A DNA stretch of 64,000 nucleotides from a virus, in IMG/VR virus record IMGVR_UViG_3300046660_000403, positions 1-64,000 of that record. One strand, written 5' to 3'. The notes beneath the pieces are model-generated. The model saw nothing but the letters and a program-made list of their open reading frames with translations, was not told the origin of the DNA and ran no database searches. This document shows positions 5,741 to 59,784 of this stretch, piece after piece (the first letter of the stretch is position 1; each line of letters opens with the position of its first letter). Both the position numbers and the translations under genes were made by a program.

Positions 5741-5782
5741 TACAACTTATTCTTGTAGTGCCGCCTACAACGAAACGTTGTA
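5741..5782. promoter_or_regulatory. two 17-bp operators, TACAAC-N5-GTTGTA
   Basis: 5741-5757 has one mismatch; 5766-5782 has perfect arms; both lie between the divergent CII-like and repressor genes. Confidence 0.75.
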
Positions 5783-5793
5783 ACCTTACGCCC

Positions 5794-6204
5794 ATGACGA
5801 AACTGAAAGATGATGTTGCAGCAGGCTTCCTAGAGAGGCTGACGCAGCTGCTCGACAAGAAAAATAACGGCAACCAGTCAGTGTTAGCCCGCGCCATCAA
5901 AGTGTCGCCGCAAGCGGTCAATCGGTGGTTCTCGGAAGGGCATATTCCGCGCGAAGCCACCCTTAATAAAGTCGCTGCCTACCTGGGCACCACGCCGGCC
6001 TACCTCAAGTACGGCGACGGTCCGGCCGCCGTGCCCGCCACCTATGAACTGATGTACGTCCAGATCGGGCCGGAAACGTCCCTGCTGTCGCATTACAGGG
6101 AAGGCACGGCGTCAGGCAAGGAACAGCTGCTCACCACCGCCGAGCACATCGAAAAACTGCCGGCGGACCAGCTGCCCGCCAATCCCCAGTTAGCCTCGAA
6201 CTAG
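5794..6204 (+). CDS. phage repressor (XRE HTH, no S24 peptidase domain)
   Basis: NQSVLARAIKVSPQAVNRW HTH, AYLKYGDG motif; divergent from the early operon. Confidence 0.85.
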   Translation: MTKLKDDVAAGFLERLTQLLDKKNNGNQSVLARAIKVSPQAVNRWFSEGHIPREATLNKVAAYLGTTPAYLKYGDGPAAVPATYELMYVQIGPETSLLSHYREGTASGKEQLLTTAEHIEKLPADQLPANPQLASN

Positions 6205-6423
6205 GCGTAAAGCCGGTCGCGCCTTGGGCTGCGCCGCGACTGCGCTCGACAGGTACGCCTTCCGCGCAAAGCCCTTGGCCGTACGCAGCAAGAATGCCTG
6301 GTCAACTGGCCGGGCGGTATCGTAGGCGCGCAACAACTCACTGCGCGGGTCGCTTCCCACCTTGACGGCCGATCCATCCCATCCTGTTTTCATTTTTATC
6401 ATACCTCTTGAAATAATTTCCAT
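6190..6423 (-). CDS. small protein, candidate antirepressor (probable start 6393)
   Basis: AGAGGT RBS 9 nt before ATG 6393; similar to the repressor C-terminus; RPALRLVRG tail. Confidence 0.65.
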   Translation of the reverse strand: MEIISRGMIKMKTGWDGSAVKVGSDPRSELLRAYDTARPVDQAFLLRTAKGFARKAYLSSAVAAQPKARPALRLVRG

Positions 6424-6512
6424 ACGGAAAAGAGGTCAATACTTTGCCCTACTAGCAACGTTCGGGCAACCCCCGTTAACTATCATTTAAGCGCAGTGTG
6501 AGATTGTCACAA

Positions 6513-6531
6513 CTGATAGTTTAACTATCAG
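6513..6531. promoter_or_regulatory. 19-bp palindrome CTGATAGTT-T-AACTATCAG
   Basis: Perfect arms in a divergent intergenic region; extra half-site at 6476-6485. Confidence 0.6.
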
Positions 6532-6585
6532 GGCACTTCCTTACCGATAGGAAATGTTTGGAAAGTGGAGTAAACTGGCCCGGCT

Positions 6586-7779
6586 TTGACGCATCCAGAC
6601 CCCAACATGATCGGCCCTCTCACCGCCCCGCCCATTCGCCTCACCCGCGCGGCCCTCACCCAAATCGCACAGCGCCGCCTCACCGTTGAGATTGATGATG
6701 GCTTTCTGGAGCAGATCAAGCGCATCGTCCCCGCCCTGATTGCCGGCTACAGTGAGTGGTCCGGCCCAGCCACGGCGACGTCGGACGCAAGGGTTCGCTG
6801 GCACTGGTACTTCGATGAGGCGCTGCAGCGTTTTGTGGTACCACCGCACGGCGTGCAGTCGAACATCATTCTGGTTGATGGTGATGGCCGCGACGCGCCA
6901 CCCGATGCCCTGGTGCGCCTCATACTGCGCCGCATCCGCCGGCGCCACGACTGGCAGCCCTGGATGCGCCTGGCCACGCTGAACCGCCGAAGCGCCATGC
7001 CCACCGCATCCGTCGCGGCGCCGCGCGGCACCGGCTCACAGATCATGACGCCGGTCGCGCATCGTGACGGCACCTGCCGTTGGGGCAAGCAGGCACTGCG
7101 CGAACTGGAGCAGCTGCCCGACGATCGGAAATTCGCCAGGATCGCCAAGTGGGCGCGCGAATTGTTCGGGTTTCAGCATACGATGGCAGTGGCCCGCTCA
7201 CGCCATGACCCCAACCTGTTCTCTATCGAGGAAAATTTCCAGCTGAAATGGCGTGAAATCTACGAGCGCGAGCATCTGGTGCTGATCGACCCCAGGCTAA
7301 CGTGCGCACATGGCGCCACAACGTGGACGGCGCGTGCGTTGCATGCCCAGAATCCCGCCTTCTGGAACGTCGCCATGGCGCACGGTATTCGCTCGGGTTG
7401 GCTCATGCGGTCCGCCGACGGCAGCGCCGCCCTGGTGCTGTCACGCCCAGATCCGGACATCACCGCCCAAGAGTCCGCCCTGATGACGCCCAACTTGGTG
7501 ATGCTCGCCCATGCGGCTCATGACCTGATGGCGCGCCAGCTGGGCAGCGTGAAGCGGCGCGGCAATGCCCCCTACGAGAGGGCGCTGCCGGAAAATGATC
7601 TGGAGATCATCGCCCACCTGCAGCGGAACAAGCCGCGCAAGGCAATCGCGGCGATGCTTGGCAAAAGCATCGCCACGGTCGACCGCCGGTTACGTGTGAT
7701 CAAGGACAAACTGGGCGTGGACAAAACGACCGACATCGTCGAAGTGGCCGTGCAAATGGGCCTGCTCAAGCCCATCTGA
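6586..7779 (+). CDS. RsaM(DUF4902)-like domain fused to a LuxR-family autoinducer-binding regulator
   Basis: AGYSEW...WHWY...VQSNIILVD...DW at the N-terminus; WREIY...IDP...W...G ligand-pocket residues; C-terminal LuxR HTH. Confidence 0.85.
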   Translation: MTHPDPNMIGPLTAPPIRLTRAALTQIAQRRLTVEIDDGFLEQIKRIVPALIAGYSEWSGPATATSDARVRWHWYFDEALQRFVVPPHGVQSNIILVDGDGRDAPPDALVRLILRRIRRRHDWQPWMRLATLNRRSAMPTASVAAPRGTGSQIMTPVAHRDGTCRWGKQALRELEQLPDDRKFARIAKWARELFGFQHTMAVARSRHDPNLFSIEENFQLKWREIYEREHLVLIDPRLTCAHGATTWTARALHAQNPAFWNVAMAHGIRSGWLMRSADGSAALVLSRPDPDITAQESALMTPNLVMLAHAAHDLMARQLGSVKRRGNAPYERALPENDLEIIAHLQRNKPRKAIAAMLGKSIATVDRRLRVIKDKLGVDKTTDIVEVAVQMGLLKPI

Positions 7780-7780
7780 T

Positions 7781-8770
7781 TCAGCAATCGATTCCAGCGC
7801 CCGTTTTCATGAATTGCGCGTGGGAGAACGGTGTGCGATCACGAAAGCTCGCCGGCACCTCGAATAGCGCCCAGTAGTATTCGCTTTGCCCCAGGCAGTG
7901 CATGGCCGTCCGGCAGTGCTGCATTGGGTCGTCCATCTGGCTTGAATACAGGCCGTCACCGGTGGGGAAGAACGGCACCACGCGGCACTCAAACAGCTCG
8001 CGCAACAGTTCGGCCGGCGCGCCGCGATCACGCGCCCGCTCGAATTGGCGCACCATCATCGCCTCGGTCTGGACCACCATCAGCATCGGCGCGCCATCGG
8101 CGTCGAAAAATAGCAGCCCGATCGGCGTGGCGAACAGGTAGTGCTCGACAAACCCATACCTGTCCATCAGATCCCGCACCAGGGAGTTGAATACGGCATC
8201 GCGGAGAAACCCGTACGCCTCCCCTTCCAGTTTGCGGTGATGCAGCTCGCGCGAGCGGTCGAGAAAGTACGCGTCTTGCAGCCCTTCGATCTCTTCGTTC
8301 AGCCTGCTTAGGCTGGCGTCATCCCCTCGCCGAACAAATCGGTCAATCAGCCCTCGGTTGAAGGCTTCGACTACCTCCTCGTTCGCATCGACGCTGGACA
8401 ACCACACTTTTTTGCAAGGCAAGTGCGAGACGGCTTCGCACGCCTCCATGCCGCTGCCGTTGGGGCGGTTGTACTCCACGACCACGACCGTGGGCGTGCA
8501 AAAGCGGCGCGGGTCTTCGACATAGTTGTAGATGCGCTCCAGATCGCCGGCTTGGGAAAACAGTGCATTGGCTATCTGCACGGGCGCGCCGGCACGCTTG
8601 GCCCGCGAGAAGGAGGACTCCATCCAAGCCACCGCATCCGCCGCGTCGTCAAAACGACGGTGCGCCAGGGCCGGCCGAAAGTGCTCCACGTGCGCTCCTA
8701 GTGGGGCCAGTTCGTCATCGATGAGCACGGTCAGCGTGGGGTGGCGGTAGAGCGGTAACTGAGGGGCCAT
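7781..8770 (-). CDS. LqsR/JqsR-like response regulator with Glu at the phospho-Asp position
   Basis: PTLTVLIDD...PRRF..VVVVEY.RP...KKVWLS...EAFNRGLIDRFV...VEHYL match the LqsR family as I recall it; GGAG RBS. Confidence 0.8.
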   Translation of the reverse strand: MAPQLPLYRHPTLTVLIDDELAPLGAHVEHFRPALAHRRFDDAADAVAWMESSFSRAKRAGAPVQIANALFSQAGDLERIYNYVEDPRRFCTPTVVVVEYNRPNGSGMEACEAVSHLPCKKVWLSSVDANEEVVEAFNRGLIDRFVRRGDDASLSRLNEEIEGLQDAYFLDRSRELHHRKLEGEAYGFLRDAVFNSLVRDLMDRYGFVEHYLFATPIGLLFFDADGAPMLMVVQTEAMMVRQFERARDRGAPAELLRELFECRVVPFFPTGDGLYSSQMDDPMQHCRTAMHCLGQSEYYWALFEVPASFRDRTPFSHAQFMKTGAGIDC

Positions 8771-8867
8771 GCAAATCTCCAGAGCGTGGCCATCAGTATA
8801 TAGCCTTTTATACAACGCACCAAAGTGAAAGTTTCACTCAGGAACTAAACACAGCCAAAACAACAAT

Positions 8868-8924
8868 AAGACATCAATTTAAAGTTGCTATATACTCTGT
8901 AAAAATCAACTTTCAATTGTAATT
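8868..8924 (+). promoter_or_regulatory. promoter AAGACA-N17-TATACT with two operator-like sites
   Basis: ATCAAT-N5-GTTGCT at 8873-8889 and ATCAAC-N5-ATTGTA at 8905-8921. Confidence 0.6.
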
Positions 8925-22209: not shown

Positions 22210-22260
22210 TTGACTGCTCTCCTTTGCAAGTCATAAAATTACAACTGTAAGTTGATTTTT
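22210..22260 (+). promoter_or_regulatory. promoter TTGACT-N18-TAAAAT followed by operator TACAAC-N5-GTTGAT
   Basis: 22237-22260 matches the reverse complement of 8901-8924 at 22 of 24 positions. Confidence 0.7.
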
Positions 22261-25487: not shown

Positions 25488-28400
25488 TTAGCCGCGTGTT
25501 TCGGCCAGTTCGCGGCTGACCGTCGCCTTGAGCGCCACCGGCGCGCTCTTCTGGGTCCGGTTCGCCGCGTCCTGGCGCATCGACCGCACCCGTTTCAGCA
25601 CGCCCGGCATGCTGACCTTGACGGGCGCCTCCGGGTTCTTCGCGTTCCAGTCGTCGCGCCAGTCACGCGCGGCCTGCACCATGCCCGCATCGTTCTGGGC
25701 GATGCCCTGCGCCCAGTGCTCGGCGATTTCCGCCTGGCGCATGCGCGTCTGCGCCAGCATGTTGAGCGCTTGCCCCTTGGCATCCTGAATATCGGCCGTG
25801 CTGTTGGGCTGGAAGCCGATGATCTTCATGATGCCCTCGGTGGTGCTGGTGTCGTTGACGCGGTAGCCGCGGGCGTCGTTGTAGCTGCCGCTGGCCAGCA
25901 TGTCGGCGCCCTTGATGACGTTGCGCACGGACGCCGGCGACACATCGAGCGCCGCGCCGGCGATATCGCCACCGAGCAGCTTGCCAGCGCCGGAGAACGC
26001 GCGCGCCGCCAAGTCACCAGCCGGGCCTGCCAGCTCGCCCAGATCGCGCGTGTAGCTCTCCTTCTTCTGCAACAGGCCGGTACCGGGAATCAGGTTACCC
26101 ATGCCGAAGCGGCCGGCCACGTCCACCGGCATGCCTGGCAGGCTCGAAATGCCCTTCAAGGCAAAGTCGGCGCCGCCTTGGCCCAGCACGTTCGTCAGGA
26201 AGGCCTGCTTGGCGCGCTTGGTGGCGAAGTTGTAACCCAGGCGTTGCATAATGCCGTCCAGCGCATCCTCCAGATCCTGCTCGAACGGCAGGCCGTCGGC
26301 GCCGGACATCAGGAACAGCACGGCCACCATGTACAGCGCGGCGCGGCGACCGGCCGCACGCTCCTTGGAGCCTGGTTCGCCAGCCATGGCCATGCGCGTG
26401 AGCAGCTCCAGATAGCCGATCGAATACTGCTTGAACGTCAGCAGCAGCGAACCGATGGTGCCACGCGCCCAGCGCGGCTTGTTGCCTGAGTTGTAGGTGC
26501 CCTGCGTTTGCGAAACCGCCTCCTGGGCGAACTTGGCCGGGTTGCCCATGCCCTGCGCGATGGCAGTGCGGTAGGCCGCGATGAAGGTGATGCGGCGGTT
26601 GGCCAACTCGGCCATGGCGAACAGCTTGCCCCAGCCCAGCGAGACCTTGGCCATGGCGTTGTTCAGGTGCGCGCGGGTGTTCCCGGCCAGCGTGCCGTCG
26701 CCGGTACGCAGCGAGCCCTTGCCCGACGCCTGCGCCTGCAGGTAATGCACCTCCTGTGGCGCCACGATGCCCTCGTCCTCGGCCCACTTGAGCGCCGCGT
26801 CCAGATCCGCATCGCCAGTGCTGTCCTTACCGGCCAGTTTCACCGCGTCGGCCAGCGCCTTACCGGCCTTGGCCAAGCCGCCCCACTGGCTCAGGTACGG
26901 CAGCGTCATGGTGAAGGGCTGCGTCAGGTTGACCATGGCTGATGCGACCGAACCGCCCAGGAACTGCGCGAACATCAGCCCGCCCAGTTGGTGGCCGCCG
27001 CCCTCCGGGTTGCGGATGTGCTCGCGCAGCTGCATGGCCGCGTCCGTCAGTTCCCCCTCCTGCTTGGGGATGGCGGTGACGGCCTCGTCGATCTCGCCCA
27101 GGTGGGCGTTGCCGGCGGTCAGGCGGGCATTGCTGTAGATGAAACCGGCCAGCACGCGCCCCGCATCCTCCGAGAAACCGGCGATGCCCTTGCGCTGGAT
27201 CATGCGCTTCATGGCGCTGCGGTTGTTCTTGGCCAGCTTCAGATACGCCTGGTAGACTTCGGTGCTGGCGGCATCGGCCTGGCTGTCCAGGCCCACCATG
27301 GAGCCGAACAGTTCGATCGTCTCGGGCGATACGCCGGCGAACAGTTTATAGGCGTCCTCCGACACCGTGCCCTGTGTCACCAGGGCGCCGGCGTGCGCCT
27401 CGCGCATGTCGCGCGCCATCTTCGCGGCCTCGTGCTGCGACTCGAACATGCCGAAATACACCTGTTCTTCGCCGTCCTGCACGTAGACCGTGTACTTGCC
27501 GAAGCGCGACAGCGGCGCGTAGCCGCGATCCATCAAGCCTTGTCCCTTGTCGGCCAGGTTCATGATCTGGCTGGCCGTGTCGAGGTGCATGTCGGTCTGC
27601 TCCGGATGCAGCTTGGCCAGCGCGATGAAGTGGTCGCGCAGCAGGTTCGCCGCCTGTGCCAGGCTTGGCTCGGCCACGGCCTGCTCTTGCAGGCTCTTGG
27701 CGTCCTTGCCGCCCAGTTTCACCATTTCGCTGATGGTAAGATTGGTCAGGCTCTTGTCGAGCGCGGCGCGGAACTCGCGGTACAGCGCGATCTGCGCATC
27801 GGAGAGGCTGAACTTGTCGCGCAGCTCGGCATCGCTCCACACCACGCCTCCCTGCAGCTGCGTGGCCGTGTAGCGACTGTTGATGCTCGCATCGTAGATG
27901 CCCAATGGGCTGGCCAGCCACGCCTGGTGCTGCTGGTGGTCGATGATGCCCTTGGCCAGCAGGATGCGCGCCTTGTCGGCAGTGCTCATCTGCTCGGCCT
28001 GCGCCTCCAGATCGGCCATGCTGATCGGCGCGCCGTTGGCATCGCGCGCCCAGCTCAGCGTGCCCTCGAAGATCGGCGCGGCGATCGCCTTGCTGTCCTC
28101 GGCGGTCAACGGCTTCTTGCGGTTCTTGCCGATGATGTCGGCGATGTTCTCCAGCTTGGGCAGCAGCGTGGGGGCCATGTCGGCCGCCACCACCGCATAG
28201 CGCGACACGTCGCCCAGGAAGCGCTGCACAGCCTCGTAGACCGGTGCGAAAATCGGGCGGCGCTTGGCCAGGTTGTCCATGGTGCCCAGCGTCTTGTGCC
28301 ACCAGTTGAGCTTGCCGGAGCTGTTGAACAGATCGCCCAGGCGGTAGCCGGCCGGCAGGCGCAGATCCTCGATGCTGTTGGCCGCGCCCGCCAGGCGCTC

Positions 28401-31400
28401 GCCCAGGCCGGTGCGGCTGTATGCGGCCGCATCACCCGCCTCGTTGACCAGCGTATGCACGGTCGGGCTATGGGCGAGGAAGTCCGTGCCCCACGTCGCG
28501 CCGTTCACGCGCGCGGTCTGGGCGTCAGCCGAAACCACGTCCGTGATCACGCCCGCCTCCACCCACGGCGCGAACGCGTCAACGTCGGCGCCTTCGGGCA
28601 GCGCCAGGAAGCGGTGTCCGCCGCTGCCGGTCTCGCGCACCATGCGGCGCAGCACGCCCTTGCCCTTGGCCAAGCCGCGTTTGCTGGTGTCGGTCAGCGC
28701 GCCCATCGGCACGTCCACCAGCAGCTGTACGGCGCCGTGAATGTCGGTCAGCACCAGCGCCGCGTGCCCGGCCGGGATTTGCAAAGCCTTGGCCAGCTGC
28801 GCCACATAGCCCGGTCCCTTGATGGCCACGCCCAGCAGTTGGTGCTCCAGCTCGGGCGCGCCGGTGAAATCGACGCCGTTCAATTCCGGCGCGGCCACCA
28901 GATCATGCGCGCCGGCGGCGTCGATGATGGCGTATTCATTGTGATCGATGACGACGTGCCCGCGCATGCCGGATACGGCAGCGGCGGTGCCGGTGGTCAG
29001 GTCGACGTCAGCGTCGGATGGCGTGGCGCGGCCCGACGGGTGGTTATGCAGCAGGTAGTAGCCATCGGCGCCGAAGCGGGCCTTGTCGGCCGCCACTTGC
29101 GCGTTCAGGTTGTTCGGCGTGCCCACCGATGCCGGCAGGCGCGAGGTGTAGCCGGCCTCGCCGACGATCTGGTCGCCAGCGGTGTAGAGCACGCGGAAGG
29201 TCTCGAAACGGGGATCGCGGTAAACCTGCGCCAGGGCGGCCAGGTCGGCCGGCGTGTGGACTACTTGCCCGACAAGCTCGTTGGGCTGTCCGGCAACGAA
29301 CCCGGCGAGCAACCGGCTACCGAGTACGGTAGCTGCGCCTCGACCAGCTGGATTGCCTTCGCCGATACGATCAACGCCGAGCCGTCGGGAAAGTGCTTCG
29401 ACGGCAGCGCGTCCGGTTCGCAGTTGGGCGTCGGTACTGCCTGGGCGGGTGTCGGTGTGTTCATAGGCGTCATTATAACCGGACGGTCCGGGCTCATGCA
29501 GCGTGCGCGGGGCGCTGCCCTGCCCTTGCGCCGCGGCGTGCTCGGCCCAGGTATCGACCAAGATGGCGCGCACCGCTTCCACGTCGCGCACCAGGTTGGC
29601 GGCGTCCCAGCGCGACCCGCGCAGCGCGCCGATCAGCTTGGCCGCCACTTCCATGAATTTATAGGCCACCTGGCGGAACAGGGAACGGTCGGCCTTGGCC
29701 AGGTCGGACCAGAACACCGGTTCGAGCCACATGGCGCCGTTGATGTCGGCGATCACCTCGGCCTCGGCCTGCTCCATGGGCACGTCCTGCAAGCCGGCGG
29801 CGACGTACTCGCGCAGCTGGCGATCGGCCACCACGCCATCCTTCAGGTGGGCGCGGATGCGCTCGCGCAGCTTGGCCCCGAGTGCCGGGTTCGATTGCTC
29901 CAGGGCGTGCAGCGTCTCGTGGCCGGCGATGGCCAGCACGGGATTGTGCAGGCTTTCCGCCAGGTAGGCGGTGCCGCGATAGGCCACACCCTCGAAGTCG
30001 CCATTGGCGGAGACGAAATTGACGTCGATGCCCAGCGCCTTGCCGGCCTGGCGCGCCAGCGCGAAGCCGGCATTGGGCGCCGTGCGCAGCGCGCGCACCG
30101 GCGCCATGCCTTCCTTGGCCAGCACGCGGTTCAGCTGTTCGGTGGTCTTCTTCGCTGCCAGCAGCTCGGCGCCGGTCAGCACCAGGGGCGCCGCGGTGCC
30201 CGCGTCATGTCCGGCAGGAACGGGCGGCAGGAAGGCGCGCGCCTCATCGCGGAAGTATTCGGCGTCGCGGCTGTACAGCACGCCCGCCAGCGGCGTGCTT
30301 ACACGTTGTAAGAGCCGGTCTGCAACGTGATCCAGTACGTCTCGCCCGCCGTCGCGTCCTTCTTCGCGTAAAACGGCTGCGACAAGTGCCGCTCTCTTAA
30401 GATCAGACACCCCAATCGGAGGCGTATACGCTCCTCGGTGGGATGGAAAGAGTGCGTCATAAGCCCGGCGAAGCGATCCTGCAGCAGCTGCAAAATCCGC
30501 GTCTGTGAAAGGTACTGCATCCACTCGTGCGAGCTGCCCTTCTGCTTCATCAGGGCCAGCAGCGCCTCGTCCGGCAGTGCTTCGATCTCCTCCTGATCCC
30601 AGTCCATCCGCATCAGCTTGTTCTCCTGCAGCGGATTGGTCAGCCAATAGTGCGCCGGAAGATGCCCGAACGGGTGCGGCGTCGCGTTCAAAGCGGGCAC
30701 GGGAGAAGTTGTAATGGACATCGGCGATCTCAGGGAAGACATGCAGGATGTTAGTGTAGGACGAAAGCAGCAGCTCGCGCAAGTTGTGCGCGTCGTCACC
30801 GGTGCGCCAGGCGACCGGGCGCACCGGCACGCCGGTGGCCGTTTGGATCGCTTCCACCTGGCGCGCGTGCGGCGCCAGGTGGGCGGTGGTGCCGTGGCGC
30901 AGCGCCGACGAGATCATCTGCTCGGTGCGGCGGTACAGCGCCTTGTCGGACAGCCCTTGCGGGTCGCCGATGAATACCTGCTTCGTGTTGTGCGCGAAAG
31001 TGGCCACCGCCTGGTAGACCTGGGCGCCCAGCTTGCCCTCCTTCCAGTTGGAGATATCGAGCCAGACTTCCTTGTTCTTGTTGTTTTTGTACACCCAGGC
31101 CAGCTCGCCGTCGGGAGACGTAATCTGCCAGACGCGGTCCACCGGCGTGGCGGCGTCCTCTTCCTCACCCTGGCTGTAGAACTCGTCCACGGTCATGCTC
31201 GGCCCCACTTCGGCCAGCACACCGGCCAGCGTCTTGGCTTCGCTACCAGGCAGGCGGAATGCGTCGTCATCGCTGGCCAGCTGCGAGAAGATATTGACCA
31301 GCTGATCGTCCGTGTCGATGCGCGCACGGCTGAATTGCGCCTCCGCCGGCGCCTGGCGCATGTAGCTGCCGTCCGCGCGGCGCAGCGGGTTGCTGCGCGC

Positions 31401-34400
31401 GACAATGGCGCGGGCGGGCGTGGAGGGGCCGCTCGACAGTTCGCGGATCACGGTTTCCAGACGCGCGTGCTTGGCATCCAGCTCGCCCTGCTGGGCGAAC
31501 GGGCCACCCTGGCGCGCGCGCAGATCCGGCAGCGAAGCCTCGGCGGCGGCCAGGCGGCGCGTAAAGTTGCCGATCGCCGAGGTCAGTCCGGATGGGTTGA
31601 GCGTCTTTTCCAGATCCTCCACGGCCGTGCGCATGGCCGACGTGGTGTACTCCGGGTTTTCGCGCCAATTGGTGTCACCGGTGGCCAGCGTGGAGCCATC
31701 CCAGCGCAGCACCGCCAGCGAGGTCCAGTAGCCGGCATTGCTGTCGTGCTCCATGGTCGCCTGCAGCGGCAAGCCGCGGAACTGGCCGATATCGACCGTT
31801 TTCGCCGCGTTCTCGCCCAGTTCGCCCGATACCTCGGCGGCAATCTCGGCGATGGCGCGCGCGGCGTCGGTGCGCGCGCCGAGATCCTGCCCGTTCACCG
31901 TCATGTGGAACGGCTGCTGGTCACCCAGGGCCGCACCCACGGCCGCCATGGCGCCATCGAGCGAGGCCAGGCGGCGGCCGTTGACCTTGACCGATACCTT
32001 GGCCTTGTCGTCGCCACCCTGCTGGGCGGTGACGGCTTCCATCACGGCGCGGCGCGCGGCGGCGCCGTCGTTGAAGTGCTCGCCCTCCACGCTCACGCTG
32101 CGCGCCGACACGGCCTGCTCCTGGGCCGACAGGCCCGCGTGCACGTCGGCCAGGTCGGATTCAGCCATCTTGATGCGCGCCGGCAGTTTGGCGACGCTGC
32201 TTTCGGCGTCCTCGATCTGGCTGGTGATGCCCCACTGTTTGCGGGCGTGCTGACGCTTGAGCAGCTCCAGCTTGTCGATTTCCGAGACCAGCTTGACGCG
32301 CTCCAGCAGCAGCGGGTCGCCGGAAGCCAGCGCGGCCAGTTCGGCCATGCTGACCGATTCCTCGTCCTCGAAGTCCATCGAGAACGCGCCGTCGTACTTG
32401 CGGATGGCGTTGATGGTTTTCAGCTTGGACGAGTTCAAGGCCCACATCTTCGCGTCGATGGTGCGCTCGGTCGCGTAGGCCAGGATTTCCAGCTCGAAGG
32501 CGTCGATGCCGTACTTGGCCAGCAGCTTGTTGCCCTGGCGGACGCCGCGGCCTTCACGCTGCTCGATGTCGGACGGCTTCCACGTCACGTCGGCGTGGTG
32601 GACGGCCACGATGCGCTGCTGCACGTTGGTGCCGGCGCCCATGCGTGGCGTCGAGCCGAGCAACACGCGCACGGTGCCGTCGTTGACGGCATCGAACAGC
32701 GCTTGCTTCTGGGCGTCGGTGTTCGCCTCCTGAACGAAGCGGATCTCGGCTGCCGGGATGCCGCGCGCAATCAGATTGTCCTTGATCTGCTGGTAGGCAT
32801 TCCAGCCGCCGGCCTGGGCATTGCGCAGTTCCTCCATTTCGTTCGGGTCGAAGCGCTCCAGCTTCTCGCCGGCGGCGCGCATGGCGCCCTCGTTCTGGTC
32901 CTTCAAGGCCTGGCGCTGCGCGGCCAGCAGCGCGTCGTACTCTTTGAGCACGGCGTCGTCGCCCTTGGCCTTGGGCACGGAGCGGTCGAGGAAAATGAGC
33001 TGCGTACCGCGATCGGCATGCCACTTGTCGTAGATGCGCTTGACGTTGTCAGCGATCACGTCCAGCTTGCCGCCCTCTTCGCGGCTGGTGGAATGCGGGT
33101 TGGCCGCGCGCACGTCCAGCGAGACCTTGCGGGCGCGGTCCATCAGGCGCAGGCGCGCCTTGTTGCGCTCGTACGGGTCCACGATGTTCGGCAGGCCGTC
33201 GAAGCCTTCCAGCACCTCATCGAGCAAGTTGATCTGCGCCTTGGTTGGCGCCATCACCACCGATTGGCGGTCACCGCCAGCTACGCGCGGGATCGGAAAG
33301 GCCTCGCCGCCGTTGTCCTCGGCATAGGCGCGCTTGATATCGTCGTTGTCCACGGAGTCGGTGAACGAGTAGTACAGGTCCATCAGCGAGCGCATGTTCG
33401 ACCACGTGCGGCCCAGGCGATTGACCTCCTTCAGGCGGCCGGTCTCGGTCGGCTCCCAGCCGGCGTCGGTGCTGACGAACTGGGCGCGCCAGGCGTCGAA
33501 GTGCTCCAGGCCCAGCTCCTTGAGTTCGTCGGCGGCCAGGTAGCGCATCATGTTGTACATTTCCACGGCCGAATTGGAGATCGGCGTGCCGGTCAGGAAC
33601 GTGACGGTGCCGGTTGGCGACTCGCGCAGCACGCGCACCTTGTTGTACAGGTCGAAGGCCTTTTGCGAGCCGGTCTTGTTGCCCATGCCCTTCACGCCGG
33701 TCAGGCGCGAGCTGTAGAACAGGTTTTTGAATTCGTGCGCCTCATCCACCGTCAAGTCATCGATGCCCATCTGCTCGAACGTCAGCAGGCGGTCCTTGTT
33801 CTTGTCGCCCTTGACCTTCTCCATGCGCGCGGTCAGCTTGTCCACCAGGCGCTCGGCCTCCTTCACGCCGAACGGCTTGCGGAAACCGGCTTGGCCGCTG
33901 TCCTCGGCCTCCTCTTCGGCCTCGGCCACGGCCGCGACGGCCGCGTCGAGTTCCTGCTGCAGGAAGCGCTCCTCGGTTTCGGGCGCGATGCCGATGAAGC
34001 CGAACGACGAGTGCGGCAGGATCACGATGTCATAGTCGCCGGTGGCGATCTTGGCGAACAGCTGGCGGCGGCGGCTCTTTTCAAAGTCCTTCTTGCCGGC
34101 CGCCAGCACCTTGGCGGCCGGGTATAGGCGGTACACGTCGGAGGTGAACTGCTCCACCATATGATTCGGCACCACCATCGTCGGCTTCTTCGACAGGCCC
34201 ATGCGGCGCCGTTCCATCGCCCGCGCGATCGCCGTGTAGGTCTTGCCAGCCCCGACCGTATGGTCGACCAGCATGAAACGCTCGCTGATGCCGCGCCAGA
34301 TCGTGTTCTTCTGGTGGCGGCGCATGGCGATCACGGCGTCCGGCACTTTCCCGGGCAGGAACAGGTGCGAGCCATCGTGCTGGCGCATCACGCGGGTGTT

Positions 34401-37400
34401 GAACTTCTCGTTGAAGATCTCCACCAGCTGGTTGCGGCGCGCGCCATCCTTGTACACCCAGTCGGAAAACTCGGTGCTGATCGCCTTGGCCTTGAGCAGC
34501 GCCAGGGCGGTTTTCTCCTGGTCCACGTGCGCGCCGCCGTCCTTGTCGTAGTACACCACCTTGATCGCGCTGTTGTTGAGCAGCGCGGCGATCAGCTCGA
34601 CGGAGGTGTAGCCGGGCGAGCCCCACTCTTCCTCGCTGGCGCGGTTGGTCGCAGCGCCGGTGACGCTGTAGCTGTTGGTGACGGCGGAATACGCCACGCG
34701 CGCGATGGCGGTGCCGGCGATGTGCTGCACGAAGTCGGCGTACACCGACGGCGGCACCCACGACGAGCCCAGCAAGGCGGTCACATTTTCGGCGCCCCAC
34801 GGCTCGGGCTGCACTTCTTCCAGGGCGTTGATGTTCTGCACCAGGCGTGCGGCGCGCGCGGCGTTGAGCTTGCGCTTGACCTGTCCGGACAGGTAGCTGT
34901 TGCGGGTCTCCCACAGGCCCGACTCAGGATCCTTGAACAGCAGCGGCTTGTCGGCCGCCGCCAGTTCCGCCTCGACGGCGGCCACGTCCTTGCCCAGCAG
35001 GGCGGCAATGCGCTCCAGATCCACGCGGCCGGCTTCGGCCATGTTGATGGCCACCGCGTCGGCCAGGGAGTCGGCCGTGGTTGGTGCCTCGTACGGCACG
35101 ATCACGCGTTTCGACAGGATCGGCGCCGGCTCGGCGGCCGCCGGGCGCACCTTCTCGCCGATGCGCGCGGCGCGCGCGGCCGTGATCGCTGGACGGTAGC
35201 CCGATTCGAGCGCCTGCACCAGCGCGCCGTCCGGCATGTTCGTCACCAGGGACGAGTTGGCCGGTTCGGAGACCAGGCCGTGCTCTTTCACGAATGCCTG
35301 GTAGGCCGCCGCCAGACTGGCGCGGTTGGCCTCGATCGCGGCCGTCTTGGCGTCCTCCGCCTCCAGCGACAGCTGCTCCTTGAGCAGATCGCGCAGCGCG
35401 ACGAGCTGGCGCAGGCGCTCGTAGCGGGTTTTCCCCAGTAGCATGGCCGATGGAATATCCGCCTCGCTGGTGAACACCTTGCGGTCGTACACGTTCAGGT
35501 TGGTGGTTTTGCCGTTCTTGACCTGTTTGACCGGCTTGCCGTGCTCGTCCATCTGCGCCTCGATGGTGTACCACTTGCCGTCGCGGTCCATATATAACGC
35601 GTCGGACCAGGGCGATTCCGGCGCCAGGATGCGGCGCGTCAGTTCAAAGGCGCCTTCGGGCGTCTCGCGCTCAACGACTTGGTGCAGTACGCCGCCGGCC
35701 TCCAGCTTGATCGAGCCGTTTTCGTGGCCGGCCAGGGCGATGCGCAGCGCATCGCTCATGTCCTTGTGGCGCGCGATGGCCGCGCTGATGCCGTCCGGCG
35801 TCTGCGTCATGACCGACTGGGGCAGGTGCTTGATGGCGCCGGCCAAGCGTTGCGCCAGGCTGTCCGGATCGTCCAGGCGCACCGTGATGTCGTTTCCATA
35901 GGCCATACTGCCCGAGCGCTCCAGCACGCCCATGACCATATGCGGGTGCTTGGCGAAATAGGTGTTCACGCGCATCGTGTCGCCGCCCAGCGGGTCGGCC
36001 AGCTCGGTGGTCTGCACCCATTCAGGCACTTGCGCGGCGAGCGCCTGGCGCTCGTCCTCGGCTTGGCGGCTGGTTTCCGGCTTCTGGGCCGCCGCGGCGA
36101 ATGCCGCCTCCATGGTCGCTTCCTCGGCTGGCGTGAGGCGCTGCAGGAATACCATATCGGTGACCACGGAGGTGCGCGCGTTTTCCTTGAATGCCGTGTC
36201 CGGCAGGCGGATGGCGCCCAGCAGGCGCGCCTTCTTGGCCAGTTGCACGCGCGAGGATTTATCCAGCTTGTCCAGCAGGTAGCGCGAGACCACCTGCACC
36301 TGCAGGCCGCCCGGCTTCAATGCGTCCAGCGAGGCCAGGAAGAACTGGTTGTGGATCGAATGGCCGTTGATCTCGGGCTTGAACTGGAAGCGCAGCGACT
36401 GGTCGCCGAATGGCGGATTGCCGATCGCCAGGTCGAATGCGCCATCGGCCAGCGGCACGCTCTGGAAGCCGCTGTTGAGCACGGTTTCGTTCGGGTACAG
36501 CAGCGCGGCGATGCGCGCGGTCAGGTTGTCGTACTCGACGCCGATGAACTTGGTGCGTGCGCCTACGTCTTCCGGCATCAGGCCGATGAAGTTGCCGGCA
36601 CCCATGGACGACTCCAGCGCCATGCCGCCCTGATAGCCCAGGCGGCGCGCGGCGGCCCACATGCTTTGCACGACAGTTTGCGATGTGTAATGCGAGTCCA
36701 GCGTGGAGCGGCGCGCCAGCGCGTACTCTTTCGGGCTCAGCAGCTCGGCCAGGTCGGCGCCGCGCTGGCGCCATGCGTCCTTGAACTGGCCCGTTTCAGG
36801 CGACGGGAAGGCGTTGGCCAAGCCGCCCCAGCCCACGTAACGGGCCATGATGGCCTGTTCCTGGGGCGTGGCGTGGCGATTTTCGGCCTCGACCGCGCGC
36901 ATGGTGCGGATCGCGGACAGGTTGTCGTTGAATTTCTGGACTTCGCCGCCCTGCCCCAGGCGCACGTCGTCGGTGATGTGGAAATTGAAGGCGGGCACCG
37001 ATGGCGCCGCCGCAGGGGCGATCGCGCTTACGTCGGATTCGGCTCGCGCATCTTGTCCTGGTACGCGTTCTCCATCTCGGCCAGCTCCTGGGCTTCCCAG
37101 TCCGTCTCTGGCGCTGGTTCCGCCGTCAGCAGGATATACCGGCTCAAGGCCACTTCTTCCGCTTCGTGCTGCTGATACCCGCTTTGCTGCAGGTTGGCGA
37201 TCAGCCGATGCGCCGCCACTGCGGCCGCCTCCGTCGCTTCGCTCCACTCGCCCTGCGCTTTCAGCACTTCCGTCTTGTGCGGCAGCCAGGTCTCCCAGTG
37301 ATGGCGCGCCTTCGCCGCCAGCGTTGCTATGTCCATGATCTTCCTTCTCTTTCGTATTGGGGGTCAGTGTATCGGATTTTTCGCGCGATGCAACATCGGC

Positions 37401-40400
37401 AACGATGCCGTGCAGCTTGGCGGCCAGCTGGCCAGCGCTCATGGCCGGGTCTTGCCACAGGTTTTGGCCCGTGCGGGATGGGTTGCCCGGCTCGGTGACG
37501 CGCGCCACGACGGCCACGCCGCTGGCGGTGATGGGCAGCATCGGGCCGCGGACGGCGCTGCCGCTCACGTCGATATGGATGCCCTTGCCCAGGCTCTCGT
37601 TGACCATGGACAGCGTGACCTCGCCCGACACGGCCGGACCTGCCTCATTGACGGAAACAGCCTTGCCGGGCTTGCCGTTGCGCTGGGGGCCAGGGGCATA
37701 GCCCTGCGAAGCCAGCACGCCGGCCACGTCTTTCAAGTAACGCTGACCATCGGACAGGAAGGCGGCTTTGACGCCGCCGGCAGGCAGATCGCCACCGCGC
37801 TCGACCGGGAATTCGTCGGTGTGCTCGTAACCGTCGATGAATTCCACTCCGTAATCGCCGCGCAGCGTGGCCTCGCCGAGCGCCGCTTTGCCCTTCTTCG
37901 GCGATTTCGCGGCGCTCGGTGCAGCCGCAGCTGATGCTGCCGGGCCCGGGTCGGCTTTCGCGACTGCTTGCAAATTGTCGCGCAGGGCAGCGACTTCTTT
38001 CTTGTATTCCTTGTTGCCTTCGTTGAACAGTTTGACGATGCGCACAGTGTCGGCTGCCAGATGCGCCAGCGGCGCCAGGTCGGGATGGGTGCGGCGCATG
38101 GCCTCTGCCAGGTCGAACAGGGCATTTTCGGCGTGCGCCACCTGCTCCCAGGTCGTGATGCTCCCCAGGCTGGCCAGCACTTGCGCGGCCGTATTGCCGT
38201 GCTGGGCGGCCGCCGGGGCGGCGGGCGCTTTTTCCTGCACTGGCGTGGCGGCGCTCTCCAGCGAGCGGGCGGCGATCTCCTTGCCGATCTTGGCCACGCG
38301 CGGGCTGTCGGCCAACAGCGTTTTTGCCTCCAGCAGCTCGGCATCGCTCATGTCTTTGACGGTGCGGCGGTTGAGCGCCTGTCGGCGCGGGGCTGGCGCG
38401 GGTTCGGCTTGGCTGGCGTCCTGCGGCACGCTGTCCGCTGGAGCATGGGCAGGGCGAGCTGTGTCAGCTTCACGCGGGGTAGCGTCAGCGACGGCGCCGC
38501 TCGTCTGGTCAGTGTCCGTCGTCGTGGCCGGGCTGCTCTGTGCTTGGCTCGGCACGGAACTCGCCTTCATATGTGCCGCGCGGACCACGCCGTACTGGGA
38601 GCCGACCGGGAAGCGCTTGCGCGTCTGCCCATTCGCCAGCCAGTCTTTGAAGCCGTTAACGTTGGTCTCGATGATAGTGTCGCCACCGCTCCAACCTGGC
38701 GCATAGTTGCCATGGTAGGCAGCGCTGGCCGCGTCGAGCGAGTCGAAGCCCAGCATGACCTTGTGCTCATCGAACTTGCGACTGTCCGGATGCACCTGAT
38801 TGACCACGAATACCTTGTCGCTGTCCGGCTGCGGTCCGATGAACGTGTCGATATGGTCCTTGTCGGCGCCCACCGTGCCGCGGATATAGCCATAGTGGTG
38901 CGCCATGGTGTTTTCCCATGGCGTGCCGTCCTTGTCCTCGCCCTTGCGGGTCGATCCGGCTGGATTTTCAATCGACAGGTCCATGCCGTGCAGGCGCACG
39001 CGGCCCAGCTTGTAGTTGCTGGCCTCCTTTTGCGCCTGGGTAGGCTCGGGCAATGCGTTGTGCGGCGAAGTGGCAGCCTCGTGGGCCGCCAGGTCCAGAG
39101 CGTTTGGGATCGCCTCGGATTCGGGCACGGTGTTCGCAGCTGGCGCGACGATAGGTTCGTTTTCCGGGGCTTTTTCCCGTGAAACCGCATCATTTTCCCG
39201 CGAAACTGCATTATTTTGACCATTTTCCGCAACAACGGGCGCATTCTGCTGCCCCAGGGCGGCGATGGCCGCCGTGTAGTGCGCCTTTTGTGCGGTGCTC
39301 AGTCGGAAGATTTTCGACGAGCCGGGCTTGTGCAGCACGGTGCCATTGGCCGTTTTCAGGCGCATGCCGGAGGCGATCGCGGCATCGACGGCGGCCGTAT
39401 TGGTGCCGGCCGGCGCGGGCACCGCCTGCTTGCGCTCGGGGACCGCATCGACCAGCTCATTGGGCAGGCTGGGCACGGGTTCGGCGGCGGCCGCGAACTC
39501 GGCGTGGTCCTCGTCGGTCACTTCGGGATTGACGTAGCCACCGCGCTTGAGCGCGGCCTGGAAGGCGGCAGGCTTGTTGGCCACGGCCGGGTCGGCAATG
39601 ATCTGCTCGCGCAGCGCTGCGCGGTTTGCCTGCGCGCGCTGTTGGCGCTCATGTTCGACAATGGCGTTGGTGGTGGCGATCTGCTCCTGTTCGCGCTGGG
39701 CGGCGGCTTCGCGCGCCTGGCGCGCATCCTCGTCCAGCAAGGCCTGGATCTGCGCTTCCTCCTGCGCGCTGCGGGACTTGGCCGCCGCGGCGATGGCTGG
39801 AGCGGTCTTGGCGTCGTGCGCCGCCTGCTCCTGGGCCAGCAAGGCCTGGTACTCGGCCTGCTGGTCCTGCGGAATGGCCACGCGCGCAGCGCGCGCCTGT
39901 TTGAGTGCGTCGTATTCGGATTTTTCCTCGGCGGTGAGTGGGCGGCCATCCACGGCAGGCACCTTCACCTTGTTGCCGGTGGCATCTAGCGCCGATTGTG
40001 CCAGCTGGCCACGGCCGATGGCCACCAGCTGGTCCATGCGCGCGTCGATCTCGCGCAGGGACGGCAGCGCGTCGCCAGCTGCCGGAGCTGCAGGCGCGGG
40101 AGTGCCTTGCGGCGCCGTGGCGTTGGCGGTGGCTGCGGCCGCCGTGGCGGCTGCGGCGGCTTGGCCTGCATTGGCGGCCTGCGACAGCGGACCGGAATTG
40201 GGCAGGACAACGGGGGATGGCGGTGCTGCGTCGTGGCGCTGGGCGCCGCCCAGGCCTGCGCCCATGACACCGCCCGTCACCAGGCCGGTACCGGCGGCGT
40301 TGGCCACGCCTTTCATGCGGTCCTGCTCGCCTTGGGCGATGTTGGTGAAATACTGTTCCTGCGCCGACTGCGGCATTTCTTCCAGCACGCCCTCGCTCAG

Positions 40401-58782: not shown

Positions 58783-59784
58783 TTAGGCGGTGACGGCGAA
58801 CTCGCCGCGGCACATGAATTGGTCATTCAGGATGACCGCGCCTTGCATGGCCTTCCATGCCACGCGGCCGCGCTGGGCCAGCGGGTCGGAGTCCGATGGC
58901 TTCGGATTGACCACCATCGGCGTCAGCGCGTACATGCCTTTCAGCGCCACGATGGCGTAGGCGTTGGCCGCGATGAACAGGGCTGGGTACACGTCCGCAG
59001 CGGCGCCGCTGGTCGACGTCATGGTGCCTTTCACGCCGCCGGCATCCGGGAATGGGGTGAAGATGGTGGACGACAGGTAGCGTACGTCTTCGACCTTGCC
59101 GATTTCGTTTTCGTACGGCGTCATCGAACCGTAGCGTTCCACCGGCACGAAGCAGCTCTTGCCGGCGGCATCGAGCATGTTGCGCACGTCCGATTCCATG
59201 TCCGGGTGGATCAGACCGATATAGGCCTTGCCGACGGCCTCGGTACCGAAAGCCGGGGTGGACTTGACCACCTTGGTGATCTGCTCGGCGTTCTGGCGTT
59301 TCAGCGCCTTGACGATCTTGCGCTGACCAGCCAGGCTGATCGGGGTGTTGACGGCCGCGCGGGTGGCGCCGTTACCGTACACCACGTTGGTGCCGGCGCG
59401 CAGGATGCCGTAGCGCATGCGCTCGATCATCTGGGCAGCCTGCTCGCCCAGCAGATCGATCGCCTCGTTCAGGACGTTGTCCTCGTGGGTATCCAGCACC
59501 ACGTCGCTGATGGTGATCATCGAGCCGTACTGGGTCAGAGTGACCGGCACGTCAATGGACGCCATGGTCAGCGAACCCGGGGTGACGCCCTCGGTCAGCG
59601 CGGAAGGCGTGGTATCCAGCGCGGTGTACTTACGGAACACCATGGTTTTGGAGTTGTTGGCCGGCAGCTGCTTGGCCTGGCCGAACTTCTCCAGGCACAG
59701 GAACGGGATGGCGCGTTTGATCAGTTCTTTTTCTGCGTACGCGGCGGTGCGCGGCGAGATATCGCCGTAATTGGTGTTTGCCAT
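58783..59784 (-). CDS. major capsid protein (N4-gp56 family-like)
   Basis: ALTEGVTP, LTQYG, ENEIGKVEDVRY, SDPLAQRG.VAWK. Confidence 0.92.
   Translation of the reverse strand: MANTNYGDISPRTAAYAEKELIKRAIPFLCLEKFGQAKQLPANNSKTMVFRKYTALDTTPSALTEGVTPGSLTMASIDVPVTLTQYGSMITISDVVLDTHEDNVLNEAIDLLGEQAAQMIERMRYGILRAGTNVVYGNGATRAAVNTPISLAGQRKIVKALKRQNAEQITKVVKSTPAFGTEAVGKAYIGLIHPDMESDVRNMLDAAGKSCFVPVERYGSMTPYENEIGKVEDVRYLSSTIFTPFPDAGGVKGTMTSTSGAAADVYPALFIAANAYAIVALKGMYALTPMVVNPKPSDSDPLAQRGRVAWKAMQGAVILNDQFMCRGEFAVTA

Follow-up and report, generated by a model that had tools for sequence, protein, structure and literature searches.

What might a phage regulate with a LuxR-type receptor that carries an RsaM domain at its N-terminus? 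This question is raised by a gene in the first 64,000 nucleotides (hereafter the window) of IMG/VR virus record IMGVR_UViG_3300046660_000403, for which a preliminary description, made from the sequence alone, had proposed an RsaM domain, a linker, a domain binding acyl-homoserine lactones (AHLs) and a divergent helix-turn-helix (HTH). The same description regarded RsaM as normally a stand-alone regulator near luxI/luxR genes with an unclear mechanism, in agreement with the review by Venturi et al. 2023 (Microbiology 169:001417; PMC10710839), according to which the fold of RsaM is unique and the protein does not bind DNA or AHL. Here we report that the RsaM-LuxR fusion is real and conserved, and that its genomic position points to control of the phage’s own lysis-lysogeny switch, because the gene lies directly beside a repressor gene, is accompanied by a divergent small open reading frame (ORF) and has its own conserved candidate operator. 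The coordinates of all features are collected in Table 1.

The longest ORF of the fusion gene is intact and runs on the plus strand from a TTG at 6586 to 7779, corresponding to 397 amino acids, and the ATG at 6607, seven codons inside it, is the start in homologues and in the database gene call. TTG 6586 was rejected as the start in favour of ATG 6607, since in a related element (L004) the equivalent upstream TTG runs into an in-frame stop. Residue numbers therefore refer to the 390-residue protein, with the exception of the Pfam ranges, which use the 397-residue numbering. The proposed architecture and its location on a phage were borne out by Pfam, a family profile, AlphaFold2 (AF2) and Foldseek, and the phage-plasmid genes of the element. 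DUF4902 (PF16245) matches residues 17-124 (E-value 1.4e-13, 51.2 bits at a cut-off of 25), and in a profile built from 14 family members residues 4-121 align with BcRsaM (PDB 4o2h, E-value 1.8e-16). The motifs AGYSEW, RWHWY, SNIILVD and DW, quoted earlier as RsaM-like, align with AGYTEW, GWDWY, SNVMAID and DW of 4o2h, and the tryptophan quartet W51, W65, W67 and W116 aligns with the four tryptophans of that structure. Across the relatives W67 is invariant and W51 nearly invariant (alignment A2), W116 is invariant (alignment A1) and W65 is mostly Trp; a hydrophobic core with a conserved tryptophan quartet has been described for RsaM (PMC10710839). The RsaM fold, a five-stranded antiparallel sheet wrapping two helices, is also predicted for the N-terminal domain (Foldseek 4o2h_A, E-value 1.9e-6, template modelling score 0.64).

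Downstream of the linker, Autoind_bind (PF03472) matches residues 185-313 (E-value 8.3e-12, 45.3 bits at a cut-off of 23). The W, Y, DP, W and G that had been noted as retained in this domain are the signature residues of LuxR ligand domains, with W215, Y219, D228, W240 and G264 invariant in 14 sequences, P229 nearly invariant, and the spacing W-x3-Y-x8-DP preserved in the fusion. In TraR these six residues are W57, Y61, D70, P71, W85 and G113. While both DUF4902 and Autoind_bind thus score above their cut-offs, the GerE assignment held only in part: the C-terminus of this protein yields HTH matches below the Pfam threshold, whereas GerE passes in 8 of 14 relatives. With the 14-member profile, however, residues 154-383 align continuously to the full-length receptors RhlR (E-value 2e-45), QscR, SdiA, LasR and TraR, and in our own reading of the alignment the LuxR HTH signature E178, L182 and G188 (TraR numbering) becomes D331, I335 and N341, with Gly at the N341 position in most relatives. 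The AF2 monomer has a mean predicted local distance difference test (pLDDT) value of 84, with about 90 in the domains, a disordered linker and no confident packing between the domains (predicted template modelling score 0.49), and Foldseek searches with this model also recover RhlR/QscR/TraR. A complex prediction of the RsaM domain (residues 1-122) with the LuxR part (residues 150-390), both supplied as alignments, scored 0.00, which speaks neither way.

Table 1 Features of the RsaM-LuxR locus; positions are those of the window.
Feature	Position	Strand	Remarks
Two TACAAC-N5-GTTGTA sites	5741..5782		repressor/cII-like switch; differ from TGATAG palindrome
cI-like HTH_3 repressor	5794..6204	+	136 amino acids; longest ORF from 5758
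Divergent small ORF, candidate antirepressor/adaptor	6190..6423	-	77 amino acids, or 67 amino acids from third Met
Candidate operator	6475..6531		half-site GTTAACTATCA 6475-6485 and perfect palindrome CTGATAGTT-T-AACTATCAG 6513-6531
RsaM-LuxR fusion, coding sequence	6607..7779	+	390 amino acids from ATG 6607
DUF4902/RsaM domain	6634..6957	+	Pfam, alignment to PDB 4o2h, Foldseek
Disordered linker, poorly conserved	6973..7050	+	residues 123-148, pLDDT <50
Autoinducer-binding domain	7135..7524	+	W215, Y219, D228, P229, W240, G264
Divergent GerE/LuxR-type HTH domain	7582..7767	+	family profile; Pfam sub-threshold here
LqsR/JqsR-family response-regulator homologue	7781..8770	-	329 amino acids from ATG; convergent, abuts fusion

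Fusions of this kind make up a small family. A word-indexed search identified six proteins of 380-391 amino acids, 46-54% identical and of the same architecture, most of them on contigs of 72-77 kb, as well as one truncated gene call of 298 amino acids (P0008), and an exhaustive HMMER search of 1.84 billion cluster representatives returned only about ten fused clusters. DUF4902 and Autoind_bind are present in all 14 aligned family members, and the mean pairwise identity amounts to 0.51 in the RsaM domain, 0.62 in the ligand-binding domain (LBD) and 0.66 in the DNA-binding domain compared with 0.17 in the linker, so that all three domains are under constraint. That the fusion is an artefact, whether a misassembly, a read-through of two genes or a pseudogene, is an explanation we consider extremely improbable. 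It could draw on a frameshift in a 72-kb relative (L005:5926-7157), where the RsaM domain is interrupted just past its SNITL motif; this frameshift accounts for the truncated call P0008 and could reflect either a sequencing error or a pseudogene. However, the same collinear architecture occurs in 14 diverged sequences from independent assemblies, including a finished circular plasmid and several Massilia isolates, with all three domains conserved, and a 71.8-kb contig from Logan, the product of a second assembler, is identical to the window over 6300-8900; on the strength of these 14 relatives an assembly artefact was rejected as the origin of the fusion, and the presence of the fusion is confirmed in homologues, which had been put forward as a check, and in a second assembly. 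The Logan contig probably derives from the same rhizosphere metagenome run, the only DNA run found to hold the sequence; among the runs listed as holding it there was none of RNA.

The element itself is a complete 76.8-kb temperate phage with plasmid partition genes. The full record comprises 76,831 bp, has direct terminal repeats and is rated 100% complete, and it encodes major head, portal/adaptor, internal virion and tail-fibre proteins together with a lambda-O-like (RepO-like) initiator, two DNA methyltransferases, ParA, ParB, a tyrosine recombinase, a cII-like protein and an HTH_3 repressor-like protein. On a circular 87-kb plasmid of Massilia violaceinigra B2, a protein annotated as ‘N4-gp56 family major capsid protein’ shares 85% identity with the capsid protein of the element, and the capsids of two further IMG/VR records share 79-82%. 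Also encoded on this plasmid, in a syntenic position, is a ‘DUF4902 domain-containing protein’ with 39% identity to the window’s fusion over 96% of the query. The regulator (39-54% identity) evolves much faster than the capsid (79-85%). Additional members of the fusion clusters come from M. scottii CCM 9210 (on a 77.4-kb contig), M. frigida, M. antarctica and related strains, with a fragment in M. mucilaginosa. A profile scan of genome contigs with alignment A1 gave no match, and a contig scan with the Massilia fusion protein found M. frigida and M. mucilaginosa. Considering that phage and partition genes occur together and that both the capsid and the syntenic fusion are shared with a Massilia plasmid, the carriers of the fusion are phage-plasmids of Massilia-like Oxalobacteraceae with a size of about 72-87 kb. 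As to the element as such, its N4-gp56-family capsid gene (window 58783-59784, minus strand) shares the genome with the cI/cII-like switch and ParAB, which would be a case of an N4-type capsid on a temperate, plasmid-borne phage. A giant ORF of 5272 amino acids (window 25488-41306, minus strand) combines LPD37, RadC-like JAB, SNF2/helicase and InPase domains, as in a phage ‘polyvalent protein’.

The immediate neighbourhood of the fusion forms a recurrent module, and the gene order cII-like (-), repressor (+), small ORF (-), fusion (+) and LqsR-like (-) is common to the window and four related loci (L004, L005, L001 and L006). The HTH_3 repressor-like genes of the module encode 136-148 amino acids. 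In the cI-like repressor of the window HTH_3 is the sole Pfam match, and neither Peptidase_S24 nor another peptidase domain was found, so that the protein is, as judged by its domain content, non-cleavable. The two TACAAC-N5-GTTGTA sites in its switch region, a weaker version of which lies at 22240-22256, are probably the operators of this repressor. The small ORF is kept in position in five related loci and encodes proteins of 73-86 amino acids within the module; its 3’ end overlaps the 3’ end of the repressor gene in the window, L004 and L005, and a terminator-like hairpin (6182-6160) with a T-run follows directly past its stop in the window. The small proteins are only 18-30% identical, yet LRLV is invariant in their C-terminal part and a (D/S)(Q/K/R)A(Y/F)LL-like motif is common to their central part. 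A search of PHROG with the small ORF at 6190-6423 gave no match. Its C-terminus RPALRLV (tail RPALRLVRG) presumably resembles the ClpX-tethering tail of E. coli SspB.

The start codons of the small ORF and the fusion are 183 nt apart, and the candidate operator is located between them. The 8-mer AACTATCA is found in three copies at this site and in a single copy in the rest of the 76.8-kb genome. Moreover, each of the four related loci (L001, L004, L005 and L006) has the half-site together with a palindrome of the TGA(T/C)AG type, and the fusions of these loci are just 39-54% identical. Regarding the protein that binds there, the TGATAG palindrome is absent from the repressor switch region, which instead has TACAAC-N5-GTTGTA, and because of this different motif the cI-like repressor is an unlikely binder. 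A 49-kb phage contig (L028), in which the repressor/small-ORF synteny is preserved and the LqsR-like gene is absent, has a similarly built palindrome, GTGATG-N6-CATCAC, in the corresponding intergenic stretch, which favours the HTH of the fusion as the binder. Between half-site and palindrome a sigma70-like match reads leftward, with the -35 element at 6510-6505 and the -10 element at 6487-6482.

The same contig L028 carries, at the locus of the fusion, a protein of different composition (L028:6001-6633), which like P0015 and P0016 consists of RsaM, linker and GerE HTH and is devoid of the autoinducer-binding domain. The three LBD-less proteins are 53-73% identical in their RsaM part and form one clade (Shimodaira-Hasegawa-like approximate likelihood-ratio test, SH-aLRT, 96) inside the fused clade (99), and this nesting indicates that the LBD was lost once, in frame, and that the resulting proteins were then maintained and diverged. 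Since these relatives keep RsaM and HTH, the comparison suggests that what RsaM couples to is the DNA-binding domain or dimerisation, and not the ligand domain only. A second, more canonical fusion (P0273, L017:6001-7122; DUF4902 1e-26, Autoind_bind 1e-36, GerE 2e-14) is located on an unrelated 81-kb IMG/VR temperate-phage contig, next to an integrase and an HTH_17 protein and downstream of a small ORF that by eye is ribbon-helix-helix-like; an N4-type capsid was not found on this contig. In the RsaM-domain tree the Massilia-type fusions form one clade (SH-aLRT 99), and P0273 and P0019 fall among stand-alone RsaMs. Two separate fusion events are possible, although the tree does not force this view.

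Convergent to the fusion lies the LqsR-like gene, which in the module loci encodes 330-358 amino acids and whose stop abuts or overlaps the fusion stop. The window’s protein matches PDB 6sy9, deposited as ‘Response regulator’ and taken by us to be Legionella LqsR, with an E-value of 1e-21 over 300 residues, and shares 40-44% identity with response regulators encoded on the chromosomes of Duganella, Janthinobacterium, Rugamonas and Massilia. The chromosomal homologue of M. frigida adjoins a histidine kinase and a divergent class I/II aminotransferase, which is the lqs/jqs layout, and it is because of this host cluster of jqsA-like, kinase and regulator genes that the neighbour is assigned to LqsR/JqsR. 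The phospho-acceptor Asp is replaced by Glu in the window’s copy and in several relatives (VVVVEY versus VLVVDY) and kept in two phage copies and in the host chromosomal copies; no kinase gene was seen near the window’s LqsR-like gene. Upstream of this gene there is a palindrome of its own, AGTGAAA-G-TTTCACT at 8824-8838.

With regard to host quorum sensing (QS), luxI was not found on any of the five elements searched, and a luxR-luxI pair is present on the chromosome of both M. frigida and M. mucilaginosa. A stand-alone RsaM was not found in either of these two genomes, the sole DUF4902 match being the M. frigida fusion. The host LuxR is 22% identical to the fusion of the same strain, and the fusion is therefore not a recent capture. 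The M. frigida chromosome (L012, L027) holds an AHL system as well as an lqs/jqs-type cluster of aminotransferase, histidine kinase and LqsR-like regulator, and the phage-plasmid carries a homologue of the regulator from each of these two host QS systems. An opposite-strand ORF of 132 amino acids between host luxR and luxI, RsaL-like by eye, gave no NCBIfam match and is not claimed here.

The architecture of the fusion, its conservation, its genomic context and the conservation of the candidate operator are observations, and we read them as describing an AHL-sensing phage transcription factor that controls a small-ORF antirepressor, with RsaM acting in cis, an interpretation whose chances of being correct we judge to be about even. 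The fusion would then be a phage LuxR ‘solo’ eavesdropping on host AHLs, and its dimer would bind the TGATAG-N5-CTATCA palindrome in the 183-bp region shared with the small ORF, through which it may regulate the expression of the small ORF and probably its own. In turn, the neighbouring cI-like repressor would be inactivated by the small protein; as the latter is devoid of a self-cleaving peptidase domain, its induction would need a protein antirepressor. In this way the lysis-lysogeny decision would be coupled to host cell density, as in the Aeromonas phages ARM81ld and Apop. The RsaM domain in cis might be a built-in brake, or might offer the LuxR module a second dimerisation/regulatory interface, setting the threshold or the gain of the response. 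It is conserved, sits on a floppy linker and was retained after loss of the LBD, and most plausibly it acts on the DNA-binding or dimerisation state. Such a role fits the description of the P. fuscovaginae RsaM as a post-activation modulator, a modulator and not a switch (10.64898/2026.07.23.740290).

Several points weigh against this reading. That the protein binds a ligand and DNA, which promoter it targets, in which direction the response goes and what RsaM contributes are matters that we infer, and the LBD-less relatives show that AHL sensing is dispensable for whatever role RsaM and HTH fulfil together. The equivalent of Tyr53 of TraR is Phe or His, and that of Gly188 is Asn in the fusion of the window. 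The promoter match is weak (9/12), its geometry fits activation (palindrome centred near -47) as well as repression (half-site over the -10 element), and the palindrome is not a canonical 20-bp lux box. Furthermore, in those loci that possess the gene, the LqsR-like protein could be the one that binds the palindrome, and phage LuxI/R systems that promote lysogeny have been reported (10.64898/2026.07.02.736140).

Two other explanations for the fusion have to be weighed. The preliminary description had suggested that the phage dampens host QS while sensing it, and in a broader form the fusion might damp or rewire the host AHL circuit, e.g., to turn off phage defences or public goods that are under QS control. 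It might do so by assembling with the host LuxR into inactive heteromers, by sitting on the lux boxes of the host or by supplying RsaM-type repression to a host circuit that has no RsaM. Stand-alone RsaMs negatively regulate AHL production (PMC10710839), phage anti-activators of LuxR proteins exist, such as Aqs1 against LasR (PMC13043044), the two Massilia host genomes have luxR-luxI and no stand-alone RsaM, and the convergent neighbour, a homologue of a second host QS regulator, would fit a host-manipulation cassette. On the other hand, an identity of only 22% to the LuxR of the same host makes heterodimers less likely, the recognition helix and the candidate operator are non-canonical and phage-specific, and the gene lies in an immunity region with a divergent small ORF, like known lysis-control modules. 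Manipulation of the host circuit has no specific support, the genomic position speaks instead for the phage’s own switch, and we regard such manipulation as unlikely.

Similarly doubtful in our view is a regulator centred on RsaM, in which RsaM and HTH form the core, RsaM dimerises or senses a non-AHL cue or protein partner, and the LBD is a losable accessory input. The three distinct LBD-less proteins, one of them at the same locus in a syntenic phage contig, and the maintenance and divergence that followed the LBD loss (clade 96 inside 99) agree with this idea, as does the finding that BcRsaM is dimeric and binds neither AHL nor DNA, and the notion of RsaMs as sensors has been raised in the review (PMC10710839). 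Yet the LBD ranks second in conservation among the parts of the protein and is therefore under selection, six canonical residues of the AHL pocket and fold are invariant or nearly so in the window’s protein and 13 relatives, and no ligand or partner is known for any RsaM. Going beyond an AHL-sensing switch of the phage, one could further imagine RsaM as an interaction/dimerisation domain physically coupled to LuxR-type DNA-binding proteins, built into a receptor of Oxalobacteraceae phage-plasmids with or without LBD and paired with a phosphorylation-independent copy of LqsR/JqsR, the alpha-hydroxyketone regulator of the host, so that one switch would read two host QS languages to decide between plasmid lysogeny and lysis, a proposal that we put forward tentatively and consider improbable as a whole.

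The mechanism of RsaM has been in question ever since the protein was discovered, and natural fusions are the only clue to an action through LuxR-type proteins. The fusions described here are carried by phages, within a regulatory module that is tractable and for which a candidate operator and a candidate target are defined, and cultured Massilia lysogens are available for testing this module, among them M. violaceinigra B2, with its finished plasmid, and M. scottii CCM 9210. In addition, natural RsaM-HTH proteins without ligand domain narrow down the part of LuxR to which RsaM couples. Phage eavesdropping on QS would thereby reach a further type of phage as well as soil Betaproteobacteria, and two signal classes might be read at once. 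Our literature search found no paper that links RsaM to phages or describes these Massilia phage-plasmids.

Compared with known systems, the closest counterpart is the RsaM-LuxR chimera reported as ‘type 8’ in two Massilia species by Venturi et al. (PMC10710839), which has the same order of DUF4902, autoinducer-binding and DNA-binding domain, and which was read as a LuxR solo because no luxI is nearby. It belongs to the same protein family, with the Massilia proteins clustering with P0011, and the window’s fusion is a new, diverged member of it from a rhizosphere metagenome. In contrast to the present analysis, the chimera was treated in that review as a bacterial gene, and phages were not mentioned. 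The review also already inferred from the chimera that RsaM acts directly on LuxR proteins; when the preliminary description drew the same conclusion from the fusion, it followed a reasonable Rosetta-stone logic that was not new. The fusion itself is not new either. New context, as far as the literature searched shows, comes from its setting on phage-plasmids, from the module and from both the second lineage and the derivatives without LBD, and with it the question of RsaM becomes more tractable.

In its proposed logic the locus is reminiscent of the Aeromonas phage modules, in which an xre-luxR operon and a counter-oriented small-ORF antirepressor near par (partition) genes drive AHL-dependent lysis (10.1101/2022.09.16.508337). 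With the loci of LuxR_ARM81ld and LuxR_Apop (PMC6456758; 10.1101/2022.09.16.508337) it shares a plasmid-like temperate phage, a LuxR-type receptor without luxI, an XRE-family neighbour, a counter-oriented small ORF about 150-180 nt away and par genes close by. A corresponding chain of events, in which host AHL would switch on the small ORF and the repressor would then be inactivated, is proposed here. There is no sequence kinship to the Aeromonas receptors past the LuxR fold, and the element described here is circular, has an N4-gp56-type capsid and has no telomerase locus. Its receptor bears the extra RsaM domain, a LqsR-like gene is attached, the repressor is without a cleavable domain, and the small ORF is placed between the XRE-type repressor gene and the receptor gene.

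Stand-alone RsaM/TofM/AbaM proteins (BcRsaM, BCAM1869, PDB 4O2H) have in common with the fusion DUF4902, the tryptophan quartet and the predicted fold, but they are independent proteins of 140-170 amino acids beside luxI/luxR, whereas here RsaM is the N-terminal domain of a 390-residue phage protein. RhlR, QscR, SdiA, LasR and TraR are collinear with the fusion over residues 154-383 and share the ligand-domain signature residues; the fusion differs from these receptors by an identity of about 20-25%, an N-terminal extension of 150 residues, a divergent recognition helix and a candidate operator that is a 17-19-bp TGATAG-type palindrome instead of the CTG-N10-CAG lux box of canonical AHL receptors. 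Finally, TraM, QslA, QteE and the phage protein Aqs1 (PMC13043044) restrain a LuxR-type receptor by direct contact, as is proposed here for RsaM in cis; these proteins have unrelated folds and act in trans.

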